DNA from: an uncultured Acidobacteriota bacterium
Lineage (GTDB): Bacteria > Acidobacteriota > Vicinamibacteria > Vicinamibacterales > CAVVIG01
DNA: 64,000 bases
Direction of reading: 5' to 3'
Assembly: GCA_963720005.1 (NCBI GenBank)
Contig: CAVREM010000042.1
Location: forward strand, 307,918 to 371,917
Shown one piece after another: positions 1,455-62,928 of this stretch. The position numbers and the translations under genes were made by a program. The notes beneath the pieces were generated by a model, which saw nothing but the letters and a program-made list of their open reading frames with translations, did not search any database and was not told the origin of the DNA. How positions within the stretch are numbered: the first letter of the stretch is position 1; each line of letters starts with the position of its first letter.

Positions 1455-1456
1455 CT

Positions 1457-1600
1457 GGAGAGTTGGTGAGTTGGTGAGTTGGAGAGTTAGAGAGTTGGAG
1501 AAGTTAGAAGGTTGGAGAATCGGTGAACTCGAGAGAGTGCGGATCGCAGACTTACGCCTGAACTCATCAACTCTCCAATTCGCGAATTCACCAACTGACT
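1457..1600. repeat. Imperfect palindrome built from GAGTTGGT words
   Basis: Left arm gagttggtgagttggtgagttggagagttagagagttggagaagttagaaggttggagaatcggtgaactc. About 28 nt of core follows, then the right arm gaactcatcaactctccaattcgcgaattcaccaact, which uses the reverse-complement words. Confidence 0.8.
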
Positions 1601-1649: not shown

Positions 1650-2606
1650 ATGTACTTCGATTTCGAGGACCACCGTCCGGACATCACGCCGGTGGGTCGC
1701 GCCATCTCGTGGCGCGAGGGGGTCCTCATCTCGATCATCGTCCACATGGCGATGGTGATCGCGCTGTTGACGGCGCCCCAGTGGCTCGTCGCCCGCGTGG
1801 CGCGCGTCCCCGAAGCGGTGGTTGCCGCCAAGGACGACAAGGACGAGCCGCTCCGGTTCGTCTTCGTCCAGCCGAGAGTGGACACGCCCGCGCCGAAACC
1901 GCCGCCGCGCGCCGACCTTTCCGACAAGGATCGCGTCGCCCGGGCACCGGAGCGTGCCGAGAAGCCGACGAATCCGCTCCCGTACTCGCGCGGCAACTCA
2001 CGGGAACTGGCTGAGGCGATGGAGGCGGAGCGAGCGCGCGGCCGCGGCCCCGTTCCTGAACCTCAGGCCGGCCCGCCGGCGGAACCGAGTCCGCCCGACA
2101 ACACGCCCGTGCCCGAGCAGCAGTCGGCGCTGGCGCTGCCGGTGCCTCCGAAGCCGCCGCCGACGACCGGCGCGGGCGGCCGTGCCTCGGGCGGTTCGCT
2201 CGGCGACGCCCTGCGGAACCTCGAGCGGTACGTCCAGGATCAGCAGCTGAGCAACCCGCGCGGCGCTCCCGGCGACTTCGGTCCGGCGATCCAGTTCGAC
2301 ACGATGGGCGTCGACTTCGGCCGCTGGATCCTGCGCTTCAAAGCGCAAGTCGAGCGCAACTGGTTCCCGCTGATTCCCCAGGCGGCGATGTCGATGAGCG
2401 GCCACACCGTGCTCACCTTCAATGTCCACAAGAACGGCACGATCACCGACCTCACCGTCGTGCAGCCGTCGCGGATCGACGGCTTCAACAACGCGGCGTA
2501 CGGCGCGATGGTCTCGTCGAACCCGACCATCCCGCTGCCGCCCGAGTATCCGGCCGACAAGGCATTTTTCACGGTCACGTTCTTCTACAACGAATCGCCA
2601 CGCTAG
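1650..2606 (+). CDS. TonB-family energy transducer
   Basis: N-terminal TM helix (VLISIIVHMAMVIALL), a Pro-rich spacer (TPAPKPPPR...PVPPKPPPT) and a TonB C-terminal-like domain (FGRWILRFKAQVERNWFPL...LTFNVHKNGTITDLTVVQPS). Confidence 0.75.
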   Translation: MYFDFEDHRPDITPVGRAISWREGVLISIIVHMAMVIALLTAPQWLVARVARVPEAVVAAKDDKDEPLRFVFVQPRVDTPAPKPPPRADLSDKDRVARAPERAEKPTNPLPYSRGNSRELAEAMEAERARGRGPVPEPQAGPPAEPSPPDNTPVPEQQSALALPVPPKPPPTTGAGGRASGGSLGDALRNLERYVQDQQLSNPRGAPGDFGPAIQFDTMGVDFGRWILRFKAQVERNWFPLIPQAAMSMSGHTVLTFNVHKNGTITDLTVVQPSRIDGFNNAAYGAMVSSNPTIPLPPEYPADKAFFTVTFFYNESPR

Positions 2607-2616
2607 TACTTCGCAG

Positions 2617-2815
2617 CAGTTCACACTTCCATGTGCACCGTTCTCGGTTCGTGTTCAAGTTCGGTTCTCGGTTCTCGGTTCTCGGTTCGGTTCGGTTCGG
2701 GGTTCGCAGTTCGAGGTGCCCCGAACCCAGAACCCCGAACTCCGAACCGCGAACCTGGAACGTCGAACCGAACTTGAACACGAACCGAGAAGTGAGAACC
2801 GAGAAGCGTGAACTG
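2617..2815. repeat. 199-bp palindrome built from GTTCTCG/GTTCGGT words
   Basis: Termini are CAGTTCAC...GTGAACTG. A perfect 27-bp arm match links 2641-2667 (ttctcggttcgtgttcaagttcggttc) to 2765-2791 (its reverse complement). The centre is near 2716. It fills the tonB-miaA spacer. Confidence 0.9.
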
Positions 2816-2909
2816 TAGAGTGCTTTGAGTTCGATGTTCACCCGTACGCAGCAACTGGGCCTGCTCATCCTGCTGTTCGTGTTCATCGCGTACGTGCTTC
2901 TGCGGACTG

Positions 2910-3875
2910 GTGCGTAAGTCGACTTCCGGCGCCGCGACCGACCGTCCGCTCGTCGTCGCGATTCTCGGGCCGACGGCGACGGGGAAGAGCGCGTTGGCGC
3001 TCGCGCTGGCCGCCGAGCGTCGAGGTGAGATCGTCAACTGCGACTCGACCGCTGTGTACCGGGGCTTCGACATCGGCACCGACAAGGTCGCCCCCGGCGA
3101 TCGACGCGGTATCCCGCATCACCTGATCGACATCGTCGATCCCACAGCCGAATACACGGCGGCCCAGTACGCCAGGGATGCCGCGAGCGTGATCCGAGAG
3201 GTGCAGGCGCGTGGCGGGCTGCCGTTCGTCGTGGGCGGCACCGGCTTCTATTACCGCGCGCTCACGCGGGGGTTGTTCCCGGGGCCGGGCAGTGATGCGG
3301 CGCTCCGGCAGCGGTTGGCAGATGTCGCCGAGCGGCGCGGCGTCACGTTCCTGCACCGCATGCTCGCTCGCGTGGATCCCGAGTCGGCACGGCGAATCCA
3401 GCCGCGCGACCTGAAGCGGATCGTTCGGGCCCTCGAAGTGTTCTTCCTGACCGGCCGCCCGCTCACTGCCCACTTCGCCGAAACGACCTCACCCATCCCC
3501 GACATGGACGTGCTCGCCATCGGGCTGCGGATGCCGGCCGCGGCCATCTCGGCGCGCGTGACGAGGAGGGTTGATGAGCAGTTCGAGCGCGGCCTGCTCG
3601 ACGAGATTCGCGGCCTGCTCAGGAGCGGCGTGCCCGAGAGCGCGCGTCCGTTTGGCGGGCTCGTGTATCGGCAGGCGCTCGAACACCTGCGCGGGGTCCG
3701 CGACGAAACAGCGACGCGGGCGCTCATCGCGCAGGAGAACCGCCGCTACGCGCGCCGGCAGTTGATCTGGTTCCGCAAAGAGCCTAATCTACGGTGGTTT
3801 GACGGCCCCGGCGACTCGCCCGCCACGATCGCAGCCGTCGACGAGATGCTGAATCACGCCTTCTCCGCTCACTAG
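2910..3875 (+). CDS. miaA: tRNA dimethylallyltransferase
   Basis: Intact ORF with P-loop ILGPTATGKSALALALA, followed by IVNCDSTAVYRGFDIGTDK and RRYARRQLIWFRK. Confidence 0.9.
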   Translation: MRKSTSGAATDRPLVVAILGPTATGKSALALALAAERRGEIVNCDSTAVYRGFDIGTDKVAPGDRRGIPHHLIDIVDPTAEYTAAQYARDAASVIREVQARGGLPFVVGGTGFYYRALTRGLFPGPGSDAALRQRLADVAERRGVTFLHRMLARVDPESARRIQPRDLKRIVRALEVFFLTGRPLTAHFAETTSPIPDMDVLAIGLRMPAAAISARVTRRVDEQFERGLLDEIRGLLRSGVPESARPFGGLVYRQALEHLRGVRDETATRALIAQENRRYARRQLIWFRKEPNLRWFDGPGDSPATIAAVDEMLNHAFSAH

Positions 3876-20277: not shown

Positions 20278-20318
20278 GAGTCGGTAGTCGGTGTTGGTAG
20301 TCGGTAGTCGAGAGTCGG
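20278..20318. repeat. GTAGTCG-word tandem repeat (half element)
   Basis: The sequence is gagtcggtagtcggtgttggtagtcggtagtcgagagtcgg. The reverse-complement word CGACTAC is tandemly repeated at 48835-48873. Confidence 0.75.
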
Positions 20319-20331
20319 TTGACCGCCGGCG

Positions 20332-26452: not shown

Positions 26453-26559
26453 GAATTTAAGATTTCAGATTTAAGATTTCAGATTGGCGCCGATTTGATT
26501 GGCAGCCCGTCTCGCGGCAGCCACCAATCTTAAATCTGAAATCTTAAATCTGAAATTTC
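26453..26559. repeat. AT-rich AGATTTM-word hairpin element, copy A
   Basis: The arm gaatttaagatttcagatttaagatttcagattgg (26453-26487) is followed by the GC core cgccgatttgattggcagcccgtctcgcggcagcca, then the arm ccaatcttaaatctgaaatcttaaatctgaaatttc (26524-26559). Confidence 0.9.
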
Positions 26560-26862: not shown

Positions 26863-28118
<1,256 letters not shown>

Positions 28119-28229
28119 AGATTTAAGATTTCAGATTTCAGATTTAAGATTGGAACGGTCTCGCATGATGGGCTGCCAATCGATAACCTGCGCCAATCTG
28201 AAATCTGAAATCATGAAATCTTAAATTTC
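28119..28229. repeat. AT-rich AGATTTM-word hairpin element, copy B (core inverted relative to copy A)
   Basis: Arms are agatttaagatttcagatttcagatttaagattgg and ccaatctgaaatctgaaatcatgaaatcttaaatttc. The reverse complement of the core contains GATTGGCAGCCC, identical to copy A. Confidence 0.9.
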
Positions 28230-35387: not shown

Positions 35388-35416
35388 CCGGCGCTGATCT
35401 TAGCCGACCCACGCTT

Positions 35417-35491
35417 GAGTTGGTGAGTTCGTGAGTTGGTGAGTTCGTGAGTCGATGAATTCACCAACTCTCCAATTCACCAACTCACCAA
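35417..35491. repeat. Palindrome built from GAGTTGGT/GAGTTCGT words (same word family as 1457-1600)
   Basis: The sequence is gagttggtgagttcgtgagttggtgagttcgtgagtcgatGAATTCaccaactctccaattcaccaactcaccaa. It lies between the divergent MFS and deacetylase genes. Confidence 0.85.
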
Positions 35492-35509
35492 TGTAGAATT
35501 GCGCTCCCC

Positions 35510-36538
35510 ATGTCACTCGTGGTTATCGCGTCCGAGCGGTTCGCCGACCATCAGACGCCGCCGGGTCACCCCGAGGCGCCCGAGCGCGCTGAGGTGATGG
35601 ACGTGATTGCGGAGGAGTGGCGGAAGCGCCGCGGTGAAGTCGTGGCCCCGCGGCAAGCCACCCGCGAGCAGCTGGCGCGCGTGCATAGCGTCGAACACCT
35701 GCGCCGGATTGCCGAGACGGCGGGCACCTCGGTGGCGCTCGATCCCGATACGTATACCTCACCCGACACCCACGAGGTTGCCCTGTTGTCGGCGGGAGCG
35801 GGCGTCGAAATGGTGGAGCGCGTGCTCGGCGGCGAGCATCAGCGTGCGCTGGCGCTCGTCCGGCCACCCGGCCATCACGCCGAACGCAGCCGCGCCATGG
35901 GCTTCTGCCTGTTCAACAATGTCGCGGTCGGTGCGGCACACGCCCGGGCGACAGGGGTTGGGCGCGTCGCGGTCGTCGATTACGACGTGCACCACGGCAA
36001 CGCCACACAGCACATGTTCGAGTCCGATCCAACGGTGCTGTACGTGTCGCTGCACCAGTATCCGTTCTATCCGGGCACAGGTGCGGCCGGCGAAATCGGG
36101 TTGGGCGCGGGCGCCGGCTTCACCGTCAACGCGCCGATCGAAGTCGGCGCGACCGACGAGGACTACCGCCTCGTGTTCGCCGAGCTCGTGCTCCCGATCG
36201 TGCGGCAGTTCGATCCGGATCTGATCCTCGTCTCGGCCGGATTCGACGCCCACGAGCGGGATCCGCTCGCCGGGATGCGGTTGACGACCGCCGCGTTCGG
36301 CGCGATGACGATGGAGCTGCGGAACGTTGCCGAGACGTGCTGCGAGGGCCGCATTGCCGCCATCGTCGAAGGCGGCTACGACCTGCGTGCGCTTGCCGAT
36401 TCGATGCGGACCGTCGTCGACGTGCTGGCCGGCCCGCCGGCGGCCGCGCAGTGGCCACGGACGGATGCGCGGTCCAATCGCGGGCGTGTCGCGGTCGACG
36501 CCGCCCGCAAGGCGCTGGCCTCGCACTGGAAGCTGTAG
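35510..36538 (+). CDS. Histone-deacetylase-family amidohydrolase (AcuC/HDAC-like)
   Basis: Intact 342 aa with RPPGHHAE, VVDYDVHHGNATQHMF and YPGTGA. Confidence 0.85.
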   Translation: MSLVVIASERFADHQTPPGHPEAPERAEVMDVIAEEWRKRRGEVVAPRQATREQLARVHSVEHLRRIAETAGTSVALDPDTYTSPDTHEVALLSAGAGVEMVERVLGGEHQRALALVRPPGHHAERSRAMGFCLFNNVAVGAAHARATGVGRVAVVDYDVHHGNATQHMFESDPTVLYVSLHQYPFYPGTGAAGEIGLGAGAGFTVNAPIEVGATDEDYRLVFAELVLPIVRQFDPDLILVSAGFDAHERDPLAGMRLTTAAFGAMTMELRNVAETCCEGRIAAIVEGGYDLRALADSMRTVVDVLAGPPAAAQWPRTDARSNRGRVAVDAARKALASHWKL

Positions 36539-36548
36539 TGCGGATCTT

Positions 36549-36642
36549 GTAGGGCGGACCGCTGTAGGGCGGACCTCTTAGGTCCGCCGATTCCCGAGAA
36601 ACGCCGGGCCTGAGAGGCCCGGCCTACGGAGGCCCGGCCTAC
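36549..36642. terminator. REP-like GC hairpins between convergent genes (possible bidirectional terminator)
   Basis: GTAGGGCGGACC...GTAGGGCGGACC-TCTTA-GGTCCGCC has its stem at 36568-36588. GCCGGGCC-TGAGA-GGCCCGGCCTAC (36603-36627) is followed by GGCCCGGCCTAC. No U-tracts are present. Confidence 0.45.
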
Positions 36643-45180: not shown

Positions 45181-45426
45181 TCCGCCTTCGCCCTGTCCTA
45201 TCGCGTGGGCTTCGGCGGACAAGTCCGCCTTCGCCCTGTCCTATCGCGTGGGCTTTGGCGGACAAGTCCGCCTTCGCCCTGTCCTATCACGTGGGCTTTG
45301 GCGGACAAGTCCGCCTTCGCCCTGTCCTATCGCGTGGGCTTTGGCGGACAAGTCCGCCTTCGCCCTGTCCTATCGCGTGGGCTTCGGCGGACAAGTCCGC
45401 CTTCGCCCTGTCCTATCGCGTGGGCT
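45181..45426. repeat. Tandem array 1: 43-bp unit x about 5.7
   Basis: The unit is tccgccttcgccctgtcctatcgcgtgggcttcggcggacaag, starting at 45181, 45224, 45267, 45310, 45353 and 45396. Copies are more than 95% identical. Each junction forms GGCGGA-CAAG-TCCGCC. Confidence 0.95.
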
Positions 45427-45481
45427 GTAGGCCGGGCCTCTCAGGCCCGGCATTGCGGCGGACCTAAAAGGTCCGTCCTAC
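45427..45481. repeat. Two REP-like hairpins separating arrays 1 and 2
   Basis: The hairpins are GTAGGCCGGGCC-TCTCA-GGCCCGGC and GGCGGACC-TAAAA-GGTCCGTCCTAC. Confidence 0.8.
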
Positions 45482-45526
45482 ATCAGGCGCCTCGCGCGAG
45501 AGCGGAGGCGGGGCGGCTTGCCGCGC

Positions 45527-45660
45527 CGTAGCTCGCTCCCGATGGCAGGCGAGCGAAGGCGGGGGGCTTCCCACGTAGACGCTCCCGATGGTAGGCGAGC
45601 GAAGGCGGGGGCTCGCCCCCCGTAGCTCGCTCCCGATGGTAGGCGAGCGAAGGCTGGGGA
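45527..45660. repeat. Tandem array 2: about 47-bp unit x 3
   Basis: The unit cgtagctcgctcccgatggtaggcgagcgaaggcgggggc... starts at 45527, 45574 and 45621. Each unit has an internal hairpin GCTCGC-N12-GCGAGC. Confidence 0.85.
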
Positions 45661-45663
45661 CAT

Positions 45664-45831
45664 CCACCTTCGCGCTTCACGCTAGTCGGTGGACAAGCCC
45701 ACCACCGCGCTTCACGCTTCGGCGGACAAGCCCACCTTCGCGCTTCACGCTTCGGTGGACAAGCCCACCTCCGCGCTTCGCGCTACGGCGGACAAGCCCA
45801 CCTTCGCGTTTCACGCTACGGTGGACAAGCC
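45664..45831. repeat. Tandem array 3: 33-bp unit x 5, abutting the padR ATG
   Basis: The unit ccaccttcgcgcttcacgcttcggtggacaagc starts at 45664, 45699, 45732, 45765 and 45798. Junction hairpins GGTGG-ACAAGC-CCACC form between units. The last unit ends at 45831. Confidence 0.9.
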
Positions 45832-46179: not shown

Positions 46180-48834
46180 CTCCCTGGCAGCGGCTCTTTC
46201 AACGAGGCCGGCGCGATGTCGATCTCCGCGAGGAAATCGACGCTCATCTCGCCATGGACGTGCGTGTTCGGATCCAGGCGGGCGACGACCCGGAATCCGC
46301 CCGGCGGGCCGCGGTCAAGGACTTCGGCAACGTCATGCTGACAAGAGAAGCCACGCGACGAAGCTGGAAAGGCGAGCGGCTCGTCGAGGCGTTTGCCGAT
46401 CTGGCACGCGACATCGCCTATGCGGTGCGGCTGCTGAGACGAACCCCTGGCTTCGCCCTCGTCGTCATTGCCGTGCTCGGGATCGGCGTTGGCGCGAACG
46501 CCGCGGTGTTCAGCCTGTTCAAGGGAGTCGTTCTGCGGCCGCTGCCAGGCGTGGACGATGCGAACGGACTCGGCGTGGTCATCACAAGGACCACCGGCGG
46601 TCGGATCATGCCGTTGACTCACCCCGACTTCGAATACATCCGCGATCACGACCAGGTATTTACGTCGCTTGCCGCGTCGAGCAATCAGCGGCTCAGCATC
46701 GCAGCCGATGGACGAACCGAACGGGTCTGGACCGAGATAGTGAGCGGGCGGTACTTCGAGACCCTGGGCGTCAATGCTGAGCTCGGTCGTGTGCTCGATC
46801 CGGGTGACGACGTCGCACCGGGCGGACATCCGGTCGCGGTCATCAGCGACGGGCTGTGGCGGCGGATGTTCAGCGCCGACCAGCAGATTGTCGGCCGAAC
46901 GGTTCGCATCAACACCCAGACGTTCACCATCGTCGGCGTCGCGGAACGGGGTTTCCGGGGCTCGATCGTCAGCATGGTGGTCGACCTGTTCGTGCCGCTG
47001 ATGATGCAGCCGCAAGTCGCCCCGCCGGGCCAGCTGAATCGTCGCGAGGCGTCGATGCTGATGGTGCTTGGACGCCTCAAGCCCGGGACGCCGCTGGCGA
47101 CGGCAGCCGCGCAGACCGAGGTGCTTGCCGCCCAGCTCGCGGCCGAATTTCCGATGCCCGAATTCTCCTCTCGCGGGACGGTGATTCCGCTGTGGCGGTC
47201 ACCATTTGGCGCACAGACTTACCTGCTGCCAGCGGTCGGGCTGCTCGGCGCGATGGGAGTCCTCGTGCTGGTCGTGGTGTGCGCCAACCTCGCCAACCTC
47301 GTGTTCGTTCGCGGATTGTCGCGCCAGACCGAGATTGCCATGCGCCTGGCGCTTGGCGCCAGCCGCCTCCGAGTGCTGCGCCTGCTCTTCATCGAGAACG
47401 TGGCACTGGCCCTTCCCGGTGCGGCAATCGGCTTGGGTGTCTCGACGTGGCTCCTGGCGATGATCAGTTTCAACGACCCCGGCGGGGCCGCTCCCGCGGC
47501 CACGGAGCTCGACCTGAGCCTCGACGGGCTTGTCATCGGCTTCGCCATCGGCGCGGCCTGCGTCAGCACCCTGCTGTTCGGACTCTGGCCGTCGATCCGC
47601 AGCTCGCGGCTGGACTTGATTGCGGTCATCAAGCAGGACGGGTCATCGCCGGCCACGTCGCGGGCGCGGCTGCGTGGAGCACTCGTCGCAGCGGAAATCG
47701 CGGTGGCGCTGGTGCTGCTCATCAGCGCGGGGCTCGTCGTCCGCACTGTTCGTGCCATGGAGACAGCCGACGTCGGGTTCGATCCGCGGGATGTCGTCTC
47801 GGTTCAGCTCGACGTCAAGCCGGATGGTTATGACGACGCGCGCGGCCGCGTCCTGTACGAGCAGCTGACCGACTCGTTGCGGCGCCAGCCTGGTATCGAA
47901 GCAGCGGCCGTGGCGGCGTACCCGCCGCTTCGGCTCGTGCCGGGCGGCGACGTCAGGCGGATCACGATCGAAGGGTATGTCGCGCGCGACAACGAAGACC
48001 TCAGCTTCCAGTCCAACGTGGTCGGCCCCTCGTATTTCACGACGCTGCGCATCCCGATGCGGGCGGGCCGTGAATTCGACGAGCGCGACACACAGGACGC
48101 CCCGCTTGCCGCGATCGTCAACGAGACGATGGCGCGCCGGTTCTGGGACAGCCCGGCGAACGCCATCGGCAAGCGATTTCAATCGGGACGCGGCTGGTGG
48201 ACGATCGTCGGCGTCGCCGCTGATATCAAGTATTTCACCGTCAATGAATCTCCTCGACCGTTCCTTTACGCAGCGCTTGCCCAGAACTATCGATCGGAGA
48301 TGATGGTGCACGCGCGGGCCGTGGCCGGATCGCGCAACCTCGTGGAGTTGGGCCGCCGCACCATCTCCGCTCACGACCCGACGCTCACACTGCTGCAGGT
48401 GGCGACGTTGGCCGACCAGGTCAAGACTGGGATGGGCATCCAGCAACTTGCCGGGCTGGGTCTGACGGCTTTCGGTGGCCTCGCGATCGGGCTGGCGGCG
48501 CTGGGCCTGTTCGGGCTCGTTTCCTATACGGTCAAACAAAGCACCCGCGAGATTGGCATCCGGATCGCGCTCGGCGCGTCGCGCACGTCGGTCGTCGGAC
48601 GATTCCTGATGCACGGCGTGAGGCTCGCGTCAATCGGCGCCGTGGCTGGCATGGCGATCGCTGCGCTCTCGACGCGCTTCATGTCGTGCGTTGCTGTACG
48701 GGGTAGGAGCGCTCGACGCCGTGACCTTCGCGGGCGCCGCAGCCGTCGTGATCGCGATCGCCTCCCTATCAGCGGGGTTCGCCGCATCACGCGCGGCCGC
48801 CGTCCAGCCGACAGTCGCTCTTCGACGGAACTGA
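46176..48834 (+). CDS. Duplicated FtsX/MacB-type permease, ADOP-family-like (second copy; frame broken at about 48690)
   Basis: The ATGA overlap with padR is present. MTPWQRLFQRGRRDVDLREEIDAHLAMDV... begins the protein. The true C-terminus LLYGVGALDAVTFAGAAAVVIAIASLSAGFAASRAAAVQPTVALRRN* is in a shifted frame and ends at 48834. Confidence 0.8.
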
Positions 48835-48873
48835 CTACCGACTACTGACTACCGACTACCGACTACCGACTAC
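48835..48873. repeat. CGACTAC-word tandem repeat between convergent genes
   Basis: The sequence is ctaccgactactgactaccgactaccgactaccgactac, the reverse-complement word of 20278-20318. Confidence 0.8.
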
Positions 48874-54839: not shown

Positions 54840-54853
54840 GGGTGATCTTCAGC

Positions 54854-54948
54854 GGGACTCGGTGCTCGTGGCTCGGTGCTCGGGAAGGCCCGGGTCGTGT
54901 CCCGAGTCCCGAGTCGCGAGTCCCGAGCACCGAGCCTCGAGCCCCGAG
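54854..54948. repeat. Palindromic element built from CTCGGTG/CGAGTCC words
   Basis: The left arm gggactcggtgctcgtggctcggtgctcggga pairs with tcccgagcaccgagcc (16-bp perfect match) inside cccgagtcccgagtcgcgagtcccgagcaccgagcctcgagccccgag. Confidence 0.8.
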
Positions 54949-54965
54949 TTTTACCAGTTTATCGG

Positions 54966-58344: not shown

Positions 58345-58440
58345 GGCGACCTCGCAGCACTCAGCACTCGGCAGCCCGCAGCTGGCACTCGGCAGTCGCC
58401 AGCACCCAGCACCGAGACCCGCAGTCACCCAGCACCCGGC
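58345..58440. repeat. Degenerate direct CAGCACY/CGGCAGY word run (no complementary arm)
   Basis: The sequence is cagcactcagcactcggcagcccgcagctggcactcggcagtcgccagcacccagcaccgagacccgcagtcacccagcacccggc. Confidence 0.6.
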
Positions 58441-58446
58441 ACGCCC

Positions 58447-59209: not shown

Positions 59210-59280
59210 GAATTTAAGATTTCAGATTTCAGATTTAAGATTGGCGAGGATCTGGCGGGCAGCCTGACCCCGGCCAAATC
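59210..59280. repeat. AT-rich AGATTTM-word element, copy C (left arm + core only)
   Basis: The arm gaatttaagatttcagatttcagatttaagattgg is followed by the core cgaggatctggcgggcagcctgaccccggccaaatc. The complementary arm is absent. Confidence 0.8.
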
Positions 59281-62832: not shown

Positions 62833-62928
62833 GAATTTAAGATTTCAGATTTAAGATTTAAGATTGGCGTGCCGGACTGGGCCGCCAGTCGCGCCGTCAC
62901 CAATCTGAAATCTGTAAATCTGAAATTC
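62833..62928. repeat. AT-rich AGATTTM-word hairpin element, copy D
   Basis: The arm gaatttaagatttcagatttaagatttaagattgg is followed by the core cgtgccggactgggccgccagtcgcgccgtca, then the arm ccaatctgaaatctgtaaatctgaaattc. Confidence 0.9.

Follow-up and report, generated by a model that had tools for sequence, protein, structure and literature searches.

The window analysed here, a 64,000-nucleotide stretch of DNA from an uncultured member of the Vicinamibacterales, carries a long inverted repeat between a tonB-like gene and miaA. The gene order ubiE-tonB-miaA was kept in 80 of 80 Vicinamibacterales loci, and the best MiaA matches among GTDB species representatives were to Vicinamibacterales (Acidobacteriota subdivision 6) MAGs, at no more than 81% identity. 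The features of the locus are as follows.

1650..2606, + strand: tonB-like gene (Pfam TonB_2 / TonB_C), with its stop codon 12 nt upstream of the element
2607..2618, + strand: left spacer of 12 nt, TACTTCGCAGCA, with 10 of 12 positions the same in the related metagenome contig L177; missing in seven relatives with an empty site
2619..2813, no strand assigned: complete short (195-bp) copy of the GTTC-heptad hairpin family, bounded by the window's only two terminus-HMM matches and backed by fold statistics
2619..2667, + strand: left conserved terminus (terminal inverted repeat, TIR), GTTCACACTTCCATGTGCACCGTTCTCGGTTCGTGTTCAAGTTCGGTTC (terminus HMM, E = 2e-12)
2668..2764, no strand assigned: variable interior, consisting of a (GTTCNNN)n array, an apex at about 2714-2720 and then a (NNNGAAC)n array (TRF and heptad parse)
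2765..2813, - strand: right conserved terminus (TIR), corresponding to the family consensus in reverse complement (terminus HMM at 2813-2765, E = 4e-14)
2814..2834, + strand: right spacer of 21 nt ahead of the small ORF, without alignment to L177 and without promoter or terminator consensus
2835..2918, + strand: conserved small ORF encoding 27 hydrophobic amino acids, MFTRTQQLGLLILLFVFIAYVLLRTGA followed by a stop, with codon-level conservation in relatives and no Pfam match
2910..3875, + strand: miaA (tRNA isopentenyltransferase; Pfam IPPT, E = 5e-73)

The small ORF at 2835-2918 overlaps the start of miaA and showed codon-level conservation in the seven closest species representatives (L001, L003, L004, L005, L007, L009, and L010). 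It had been missed by a first-pass annotation of this DNA, which described the hairpin as filling the tonB-miaA spacer; of the 228 nt that separate the tonB stop (2606) from this 27-codon ORF, the element in fact takes up 195.

By sequence inspection, the inverted repeat runs across 2617-2815 between the ends CAGTTCAC and GTGAACTG, with the hairpin centre at about 2716. These termini and the centre were as claimed by the first-pass annotation, and so was the perfect 27-bp match between arms 2641-2667 and 2765-2791, which is exact and cannot be extended by one base at either side. Its description of the whole as a 199-bp near-perfect palindrome stood in part: an inverted repeat is present and folds beyond chance, but the palindrome is imperfect, with gapless arms of 74 nt at 81% complementarity, and the ends defined by the family lie at 2619 and 2813. 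As RNA, the hairpin had a minimum free energy of -136.8 kcal/mol on the + strand (z = -12.5) and -138.1 kcal/mol on the - strand (z = -13.0), with 0 of 200 dinucleotide shuffles equally stable; the DNA fold gave z = -11.1, and about 79-80 base pairs were formed within the 195 nt of the element. It also received the top hairpin score in a scan of the 64-kb window, in agreement with its having been named the largest hairpin there. The proposed make-up of the arms, from GTTC words and their complements, was likewise borne out: the left half contains 13 GTTC and 0 GAAC, the right half 12 GAAC and 0 GTTC, both with a 7-nt period, and TRF detected period-7 arrays at 2661-2688, 2719-2755, and 2722-2769. 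ORFs predicted across the hairpin, which had been dismissed as artefacts, are indeed low-complexity read-throughs in a region missing from relatives. The GC content of the element is 57%, compared with 66% for the window and 37-48% for the sister families described below; its base composition is foreign, which we count in support of the element explanation.

A core 21-mer from inside the perfect arm, GTTCGTGTTCAAGTTCGGTTC, was used to scan a soil-metagenome collection and matched at least 120 contigs, in differing flanks. Retrieval by an exact 21-mer inflates the apparent conservation of that block; the aligned copies among the matches listed nevertheless share a complete 49-nt terminus that extends well beyond the query. 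The terminus consensus, GTTCACGCTTCTGGGTTCTCGCTTCTCGGTTCGTGTTCAAGTTCGGTTC, is built from (G/C)TTCNNN heptads together with the irregular 21-nt block, and is followed by a variable (GTTCNNN)n array, a variable centre, an inverse array, and an inverse terminus. Across 113 unique family termini, conservation set in abruptly at the G of GTTCAC, constrained positions were 87-95% conserved, with background reached by position -34, and the weakly conserved terminus positions recurred at 7-base spacing. In the left terminus of the window copy, heptads 2 and 3 have diverged from the family consensus. The GTTCNNN words therefore come in two layers that had previously gone unrecognised, the 49-nt terminus, which is conserved, and the microsatellite interior, which varies.

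An HMM of this terminus gave exactly two matches in the window, 2619-2667 (+) and 2813-2765 (-), and none in 80 species-representative loci, which indicates that the GTTC family is confined to a narrower lineage, with different unit families present in other lineages. Across the metagenome contigs listed, the HMM yielded at least 199 matches (at least 148 of them full length) and at least 67 end pairs, of which at least 64 were unique complete elements. Among these matches, most elements measured 107-324 bp, a second group measured 709-834 bp, and a few wider pairs reached 1848 bp; the 190 of 199 termini with enough flank fell into at least 166 flank clusters. The first-pass annotation's own refuting condition, a single-copy, strain-specific sequence, does not hold: the element is one member of a large dispersed family, and it combines two attributes of MITEs, namely many copies in different flanks and, on a short non-coding unit, 49-nt TIRs. 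Copies other than the one that triggered retrieval occurred about once per 80 kb, similar to the 1 per 64 kb in the window, and, extrapolated from this density, a genome may hold around one hundred copies. The hosts of the family are soil Vicinamibacterales (Acidobacteriota subdivision 6), the metagenome contigs themselves carrying no taxonomy. A scan of viral contigs for the terminus returned 0 matches.

Both empty and filled orthologous sites were identified. The seven closest species representatives all have an empty site: six of them show an overlap between the tonB stop and the start of the small ORF (GTGA / ATGA), and in L009 about 9 extra nt lie between the two. Relative to these genomes the window has 228 extra nt, 195 of them the element. 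The seven are too diverged from the window for the insertion to be mapped to the base, and joined-flank queries for base-exact empty sites against all collected loci matched distant relatives only. The filled site is in L177, a metagenome contig that is the window's nearest relative among the matches listed, with 84-88% amino acid identity in UbiE, TonB, and MiaA as against only 55-81% for the species representatives. Here an element occupies the same place, 12 nt past the tonB stop, with 10 of the 12 spacer nucleotides identical; this copy is 241 bp long, with conserved termini and an interior wholly unlike that of the window copy. The simplest reading of an element at the same site in both is that the insertion is older than the split of the two lineages.

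Interior and termini evolve in different ways. Contigs with the same flank and terminus differed only in the interior, by whole multiples of the heptad: exactly one 14-nt double heptad unit distinguishes L097 and L193 from L198, and tens to about 100 nt of heptads separate L113 and L159 from L094, L125 from L166, and L144 from L147. The interior is in this respect a variable-number heptad repeat, a class that leaves the irregular termini unexplained. Between the window and L177, orthologous termini differed at 8 of 98 positions, or at 8 of 56 once the retrieval 21-mer was left out of the four termini; 3 differences fell among the 49 positions of the right terminus. For the same pair, synonymous sites in the three genes flanking the element gave pS values of 0.42-0.47, and the termini evolve about 5 times more slowly than these sites. 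The two arms of one copy were 78% alike, compared with 76% for arms of different copies, which points to position-specific constraint or to conversion toward a common consensus and not to correction of one arm by the other. Such conservation in situ could reflect a host function instead of mobility.

No target-site duplication was found across 53 family copies among the matches listed: the direct repeat at the ends had zero length in 42 of the 53 short copies with both flanks, and the others were at chance level. The lack of a duplication that the first-pass annotation had noted here, alongside a MITE-like size, thus holds across the family; its proposal that empty or filled sites with duplications would mark an ordinary MITE is borne out as regards the sites, both kinds of which exist, but not the duplications. 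The 2-3 bases beyond GTTCAC often continue the palindrome (by at least 2 nt in 18 of 42 copies, where permutation predicted 8.5), most commonly as GTC...GAC; either the terminus is (GTC)GTTCAC with eroded tips, or insertion occurred at the centre of a short palindrome. Throughout the 647 kb of metagenome contigs listed, no transposase was found near the copies, no Y1 transposase adjoined any of them, and no insertion sequence paired the family termini with a transposase. One candidate autonomous element (L102/L126), with termini 1.8 kb apart, encloses a fragment of a kinase/beta-propeller gene and not a transposase, and we take it for a pair of independent ends on either side of a host gene; L165 presents a similar case, in which a methyltransferase lies between the termini.

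A protein-coding gene did recur inside the family. Among the matches listed, at least 15 terminus pairs lay 600-1900 bp apart, and at least 10 of these enclosed one small gene; the other wide pairs enclosed ordinary host genes and look like separate ends. The enclosed gene matched Pfam PF05635, “23S rRNA-intervening sequence protein” (E = 1e-12, above the curated cut-off), and also NCBIfam TIGR02436, “four helix bundle protein.” About 12 such long forms, 709-790 bp in length and arranged as terminus, PF05635 gene, terminus, were present in at least 4 genomic contexts; the window copy has the stem but no ORF. Two of these long forms, likewise with termini on both sides, were recovered by a protein search and not a DNA search, in L201 (a 1.98-Mb contig) and L202 (a 591-kb contig). 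The gene is under purifying selection (dN/dS 0.03-0.18), and its synonymous sites are saturated between loci (pS 0.63-0.86) at which the termini are still recognisable. In an all-against-all ORF clustering of the 120 contigs listed, it alone recurred across different flanks, the other recurrent clusters being its own alternative frames or housekeeping neighbours from the same locus. The protein database contained 743 close homologues of 148 to 232 amino acids, a spread of lengths that fits the way in which the ORF was seen to run on into the variable heptad array. No transposase or nuclease activity is known for PF05635 proteins. The family corresponds to Avd and is functionally uncharacterised outside diversity-generating retroelements (PMC10053308). 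A subfamily HMM found no four-helix-bundle gene in the window or the 80 species loci, and the ORFs in the unannotated gaps of the window contained nothing obvious; a weak candidate ORF in L011 had no Pfam match.

The GTTC element is not the only hairpin of its kind. At least 6 further heptad or octad hairpins, overlooked in the first-pass annotation, occur in the window, each a tandem array of a 7- or 8-nt unit followed by the reverse-complement array.

1456-1600: hairpin, unit GAGTTGGN
26455-26556: hairpin, unit AGATTTM
28118-28226: hairpin, unit AGATTTM
35416-35492: hairpin, unit TGAGTTSG
54853-54949: hairpin, unit CTCGGTG
62835-62926: hairpin, unit AGATTTM

One-armed repeat arrays are also present in the window, as are GTAG-tagged REP-like palindromes at 36532-36642. 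A gapless hairpin scan of the window and 80 loci (993 kb) detected 70 long hairpins, with an arm periodicity of 7 nt in 29, 8 nt in 12, and 9 nt in 3; about two-thirds of the long hairpins in the roughly 1 Mb from 80 species and the window are therefore built from tandem 7-9-nt units. Orthologous hairpins traced through three or four species shared the unit and differed in copy number, and the ubiE-tonB spacer holds different unit families in different species. The ATTTMAG family was nearly absent, and the GAGTTGG family absent, from the metagenome contigs listed with the GTTC family. Upstream of ubiE, a TTGGTCC heptad family unrelated to GTTC forms short hairpins in three species and, at the equivalent site in L026, a 449-bp form whose centre contains a C-terminal remnant of PF05635; this was the sole Pfam match and, at only 44 residues, falls below the cut-off (E = 2e-5). 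A homologue search with the L026 remnant gave no candidates. No remnant of the gene body was detected in the centres of the short GTTC-family copies among the matches listed, nor, by inspection, in the loops of nine other heptad hairpins, so the case for an origin of short copies by internal deletion consists of the shared termini and L026.

The surroundings of the copies were analysed for signs of a role in transcription. Among the matches listed, short copies are separated from the ends of the ORFs on either side by 2-30 nt and almost fill the spacers. As judged by a crude GC3-based gene caller, and hence approximately, 27 copies were in co-directional, 12 in convergent, and 5 in divergent contexts; the excess of convergent over divergent contexts was not significant. 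Neither a U-tract nor a terminator consensus occurs at the element, where the downstream sequence is TGTAGAGTGCTTTGAG, and promoter and terminator scans around it revealed nothing relevant; the structure is, as the first-pass annotation remarked, far larger than an intrinsic terminator needs. Sense and antisense folds were equally stable in the 27 co-directional cases (Wilcoxon p = 0.95; 110 versus 122 G.U pairs), which suggests that complementarity is kept at the DNA level and gives no sign of selection at the RNA level. At gathering thresholds Rfam had no match in the window, and a permissive scan returned only generic long-hairpin families far below threshold; tRNA genes and rRNA were absent from the window. 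Inside each terminus, GTTC-N7-GTTC presumably resembles a LexA box; it was not enriched elsewhere in the window.

Several origins can be weighed against these observations. Long palindromes can stem from some library and assembly errors, such as fold-back chimeras, yet the presence of the element at the same site in the independent contig L177, and of family members in contigs from many projects and assemblers, including the 1.98-Mb contig, leaves an artefact with a negligible probability. Local formation at a single spacer, by heptad slippage followed by inverted duplication or template switch and without any mobility, would fit the slippage seen in the interior arrays, and a survey summarised in PMC4679880 ranks heptanucleotides as the commonest long simple repeats in many bacteria. 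An irregular 49-nt terminus that recurs in more than 100 unrelated flanks refutes single-locus slippage for the termini, however, leaving it valid only for growth of the interior, and as an account of the whole element we regard it as highly improbable. Only slightly less improbable is a classic MITE, that is, a cut-and-paste deletion derivative of an insertion sequence with a DDE transposase: the terminal inverted repeats, the small size, the many dispersed copies, and the coexistence of empty and filled sites all agree with it, but it is disfavoured by the missing duplication in 53 copies and by the missing transposase, no relative bearing one having been found among the at least 15 terminus pairs 600-1900 bp apart. 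Mobilisation in the manner of REPINs appears unlikely but merits more weight. Under that scheme the inverted doublet would travel as single-stranded DNA by means of a single-copy RAYT (an IS200/IS605-like Y1 transposase) encoded elsewhere, with the four-helix-bundle gene as a frequent passenger; the hairpin shape, the intergenic location, the conserved arms with a variable centre, and the lack of a duplication would all follow, and the REP-like palindromes at 36532-36642 mean that a RAYT may exist in this genome. On the other hand, the termini here are 49 nt long and begin with (GTC)GTTCAC, unlike the 20-40-nt units with a GTAG or CGTC tag described in PMC3733652, and no Y1 transposase lay beside the copies in the 647 kb listed, although a single-copy RAYT would rarely be sampled.

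A possibility of appreciable, if minority, weight is that the hairpin, and especially its termini, is kept for its use to the cell, whether as a terminator or attenuator lacking a U-tract, as a barrier to 3' exonucleases, or as an array bound by a protein with specificity for (G/C)TTC at 7-nt spacing. Such a role is compatible with a mobile origin, to which it may have been added by exaptation. It would account for the change of orthologous termini at 8% of positions against about 44% of synonymous sites, for the placement of copies so close to ORF ends, for the 12 convergent over 5 divergent contexts, for the persistence of orthologous hairpins of other unit families across four species, and for the occupation of one spacer by different families in different species. 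Gene conversion among copies could also give conserved termini, however, the convergent excess falls short of significance, and neither a U-tract, a terminator consensus, nor any sense-strand bias in stability or G.U pairs is present. Moreover, six of the seven closest empty-site relatives have no spacer at all, with stop and start overlapping.

We consider it likely that 2619-2813 of the window is a non-coding copy of a dispersed hairpin family, inserted without a target-site duplication, whose longer relatives bear a gene. That it is a dispersed and bounded hairpin element, with conserved heptad-built termini and a slippage-prone interior, inserted in a formerly overlapping gene junction, is well supported; our own reading goes further and sees in it a non-autonomous mobile element akin to MITEs, REPINs, and rRNA intervening sequences (IVSs). 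The copy would have entered between tonB and the small ORF in the common ancestor of the window genome and L177, after which the heptad microsatellite of the interior would grow inward from each terminus and change by slippage, so as to differ in each copy. The short copies may be non-autonomous and related to the gene-bearing forms, with separate machinery moving them in trans as DNA, possibly through binding of the four-helix-bundle protein to the repeated termini. By analogy with rRNA IVSs, which have the same layout of a stem plus PF05635, the hairpin, if transcribed, is probably an RNase III substrate. Cleavage of the roughly 80-bp stem in a tonB-miaA operon transcript would leave the small ORF and miaA uncoupled from tonB, with RNA ends capped by stems. 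A broader and much more tentative proposal, which we would sooner doubt than adopt, is that PF05635/TIGR02436 (Avd-like) proteins are the dedicated partner of a distinct class of mobile hairpin elements without target-site duplications, and that the proteins recognise the arms, which are arrays of 7-8-nt repeats; rRNA IVSs would then be the members of this one class that reside in rRNA, and the many Vicinamibacterales heptad hairpins its intergenic members, mostly lacking the ORF.

Among known systems, the GTTC elements belong to the hairpin-forming interspersed repeats; taken alone, the window copy is an ordinary member, and it is the family that deserves attention. BOX elements of Streptococcus pneumoniae are similar in their conserved end modules, variable internal repeat modules, stable stem-loops, intergenic location, and lack of a transposase; they differ in having modules of about 45-59 nt with unrelated sequences, no heptad periodicity, and no associated gene. 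The Correia/NEMIS MITEs of Neisseria are likewise short, non-coding, bounded by terminal inverted repeats, located near genes, and co-transcribed, and the Correia hairpins are cut by RNase III; target-site duplications and a transposase-bearing parent insertion sequence are typical of MITEs, in contrast, and neither was found here among the matches listed. The STRR sequences of cyanobacteria share with our elements tandem heptanucleotide intergenic repeats of variable copy number that fall into patchy families. The TAACTGA repeats of Beggiatoaceae (PMC4679880) are also tandem 7-nt intergenic units with copy-number variation and patchy, lineage-specific families. Both STRR and TAACTGA repeats are direct arrays with neither conserved irregular termini nor an obligatory inverted partner array, whereas the arrays reported here form the interior of a bounded palindromic element.

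REPINs and REPs, which are mobilised by RAYTs, resemble the family in their inverted hairpin doublets without target-site duplications, their intergenic location, their conserved arms and variable centres, and their tens to hundreds of copies per genome. The differences are a terminus of 49 nt against 20-40 nt and the lack of a GTAG or CGTC tag (PMC3733652); the interior here is, in addition, a heptad microsatellite, and the associated gene encodes a four-helix bundle in place of a Y1 transposase. The 23S rRNA IVSs of Coxiella, Leptospira, and Salmonella, which contain an S23p / PF05635 ORF, have a long terminal stem formed by inverted ends and, as in our long forms, a loop containing a PF05635 four-helix-bundle gene (PMC4990558). 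Excision of these stem-bounded, PF05635-bearing sequences by RNase III is documented, and they are considered selfish and perhaps mobile, no enzyme being known for their mobility, another likeness to the present family (PMC4990558); the stem of the elements here may be the counterpart of that RNase III substrate. IVSs lie inside rRNA helices 25/45, unlike the present elements, which lie between protein-coding genes, have arms made of 7-nt repeats with a variable-number interior, and in most copies, that of the window included, lost or never had the ORF. A full-text literature search of incomplete coverage turned up neither these elements nor any connection drawn between PF05635 and heptad hairpins.

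In soil, Vicinamibacterales count among the most abundant bacteria, and practically no description of their non-coding DNA exists; at least one of their heptad hairpin families is a bounded, dispersed, sequence-constrained element. Heptad hairpins create spurious ORFs and extend real ones (as in the four-helix-bundle proteins of 148 to 232 amino acids), are likely to break short-read assemblies, and put long double-stranded RNA stems into operons. Any movement of these elements would proceed with neither target-site duplication nor a recognisable transposase, and their sole recurrent cargo among the matches listed is a PF05635 protein. The role of PF05635 outside diversity-generating retroelements has been an open question since rRNA IVSs were discovered in the early 1990s, and what the IVS protein is for, and whether IVSs are mobile, can now be tested directly. 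Should PF05635 proteins prove to be dedicated partners of such hairpins, this would represent a new mechanism of mobility or maintenance and provide a function for a very large orphan protein family.

The architecture of the GTTC family, dispersed hairpin elements with inverted heptad termini, was shared by the AGATTTM-heptad hairpins, a family with four AT-rich (37-44% GC) copies in the window:

26455-26556, AGATTTM-heptad hairpin
28118-28226, AGATTTM-heptad hairpin
62835-62926, AGATTTM-heptad hairpin
59212-59242, half copy

All of these copies contained the same invariant module (GRAATTTAAGATTTCAGATTTMAGATTTMAGATTGG, about 33 nt), and their centres were unrelated. Among 200 other loci the family gave a single match (L143). 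Hairpins built of the octad GAGTTGGN were also found:

window 1456-1600, octad hairpin in the ubiE-tonB spacer
window 35416-35492, octad hairpin
L177 (the metagenome contig most closely related to the window), about 2125-2230, octad hairpin

The octad hairpin of the ubiE-tonB spacer was kept at the orthologous site in L177; hairpins occupied this spacer in L004, L005, L022, and L046 too, but their units were quite different.

Every GTTC-family terminus carried GTTC-N7-GTTC within its irregular, most conserved block (window 2653-2667 and 2765-2779), and the motif was not enriched elsewhere in the window. In Alphaproteobacteria and Acidobacterium capsulatum, GTTC-N7-GTTC has been reported as the consensus of the LexA box, and the sequence match is a candidate lead.

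The long forms of the GTTC family enclose a four-helix-bundle gene (PF05635/TIGR02436), whose reading frame runs on into the heptad array before its stop codon:

L118 1649-2227, minus strand, four-helix-bundle ORF
L200 4681-5274, plus strand, four-helix-bundle ORF
P0001-P0120, homologous proteins

Low-complexity tails (e.g., ...NPEQANPEHPNKEPRTELEHE) therefore result, and close homologues ranged from 148 to 232 amino acids. Directly downstream of the PBP1A gene, a short element of 213 bp was found in L132 (8166-8378), whereas other genomes had gene-bearing forms of about 730-760 bp there:

L200 4521-5276, 756 bp
L201 9846-10579, 734 bp

Either this is an old insertion from which the gene was lost, or the same site has been used repeatedly. 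In four species, TTGGTCC-heptad hairpins lay immediately upstream of ubiE:

L026 3634-4082, 449 bp, enclosing a remnant of the C-terminal half of a PF05635 gene
L003 3913-4133, short form
L005 3735-3868, short form
L017 395-508, short form

Together they resemble successive stages of decay, from long to short, at a single orthologous site. Elsewhere in L005 (4626-4930), arms of GACTGGG units surrounded a second hairpin of CACGAAA-type units, which looks like one element nested within another.

Other features of the window were as follows:

54853-54949, CTCGGTG heptad hairpin (73% GC) between convergent genes
20279-20319, 48833-48873, and 58353-58446, three one-armed tandem heptad arrays without obvious inverted partner
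45181-45831, three large adjoining tandem arrays (periods 43, 48, and 33/66 nt)
2835-2918, plus strand, conserved 27-codon hydrophobic ORF (MFTRTQQLGLLILLFVFIAYVLLRTGA) between tonB and miaA
36532-36642, REP-like palindromes with a GTAG tag (two copies each of TGTAGGGCGGACC and GAGGCCCGGCCTAC)

The 43-nt array comprised 5.7 copies (98% identical). Each unit of the three adjoining arrays held a CCGCC...GGCGG-type palindrome, and several metagenome contigs (L089, L168, L189) carried similar 'GCTTCGGCGAGGC...GCC' motifs in their flanks. The 27-codon ORF, which had no match in a Pfam search and was probably left unannotated owing to its small size, was present throughout the Vicinamibacterales relatives; in most of them, the tonB stop and the start of the ORF overlap (GTGA). 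Palindromes resembling the GTAG-tagged ones lay near position 9464 of L041 and near position 9991 of L069, so a conventional REP/RAYT system, in which the RAYT transposase mobilises REP elements, may also be present in these genomes.
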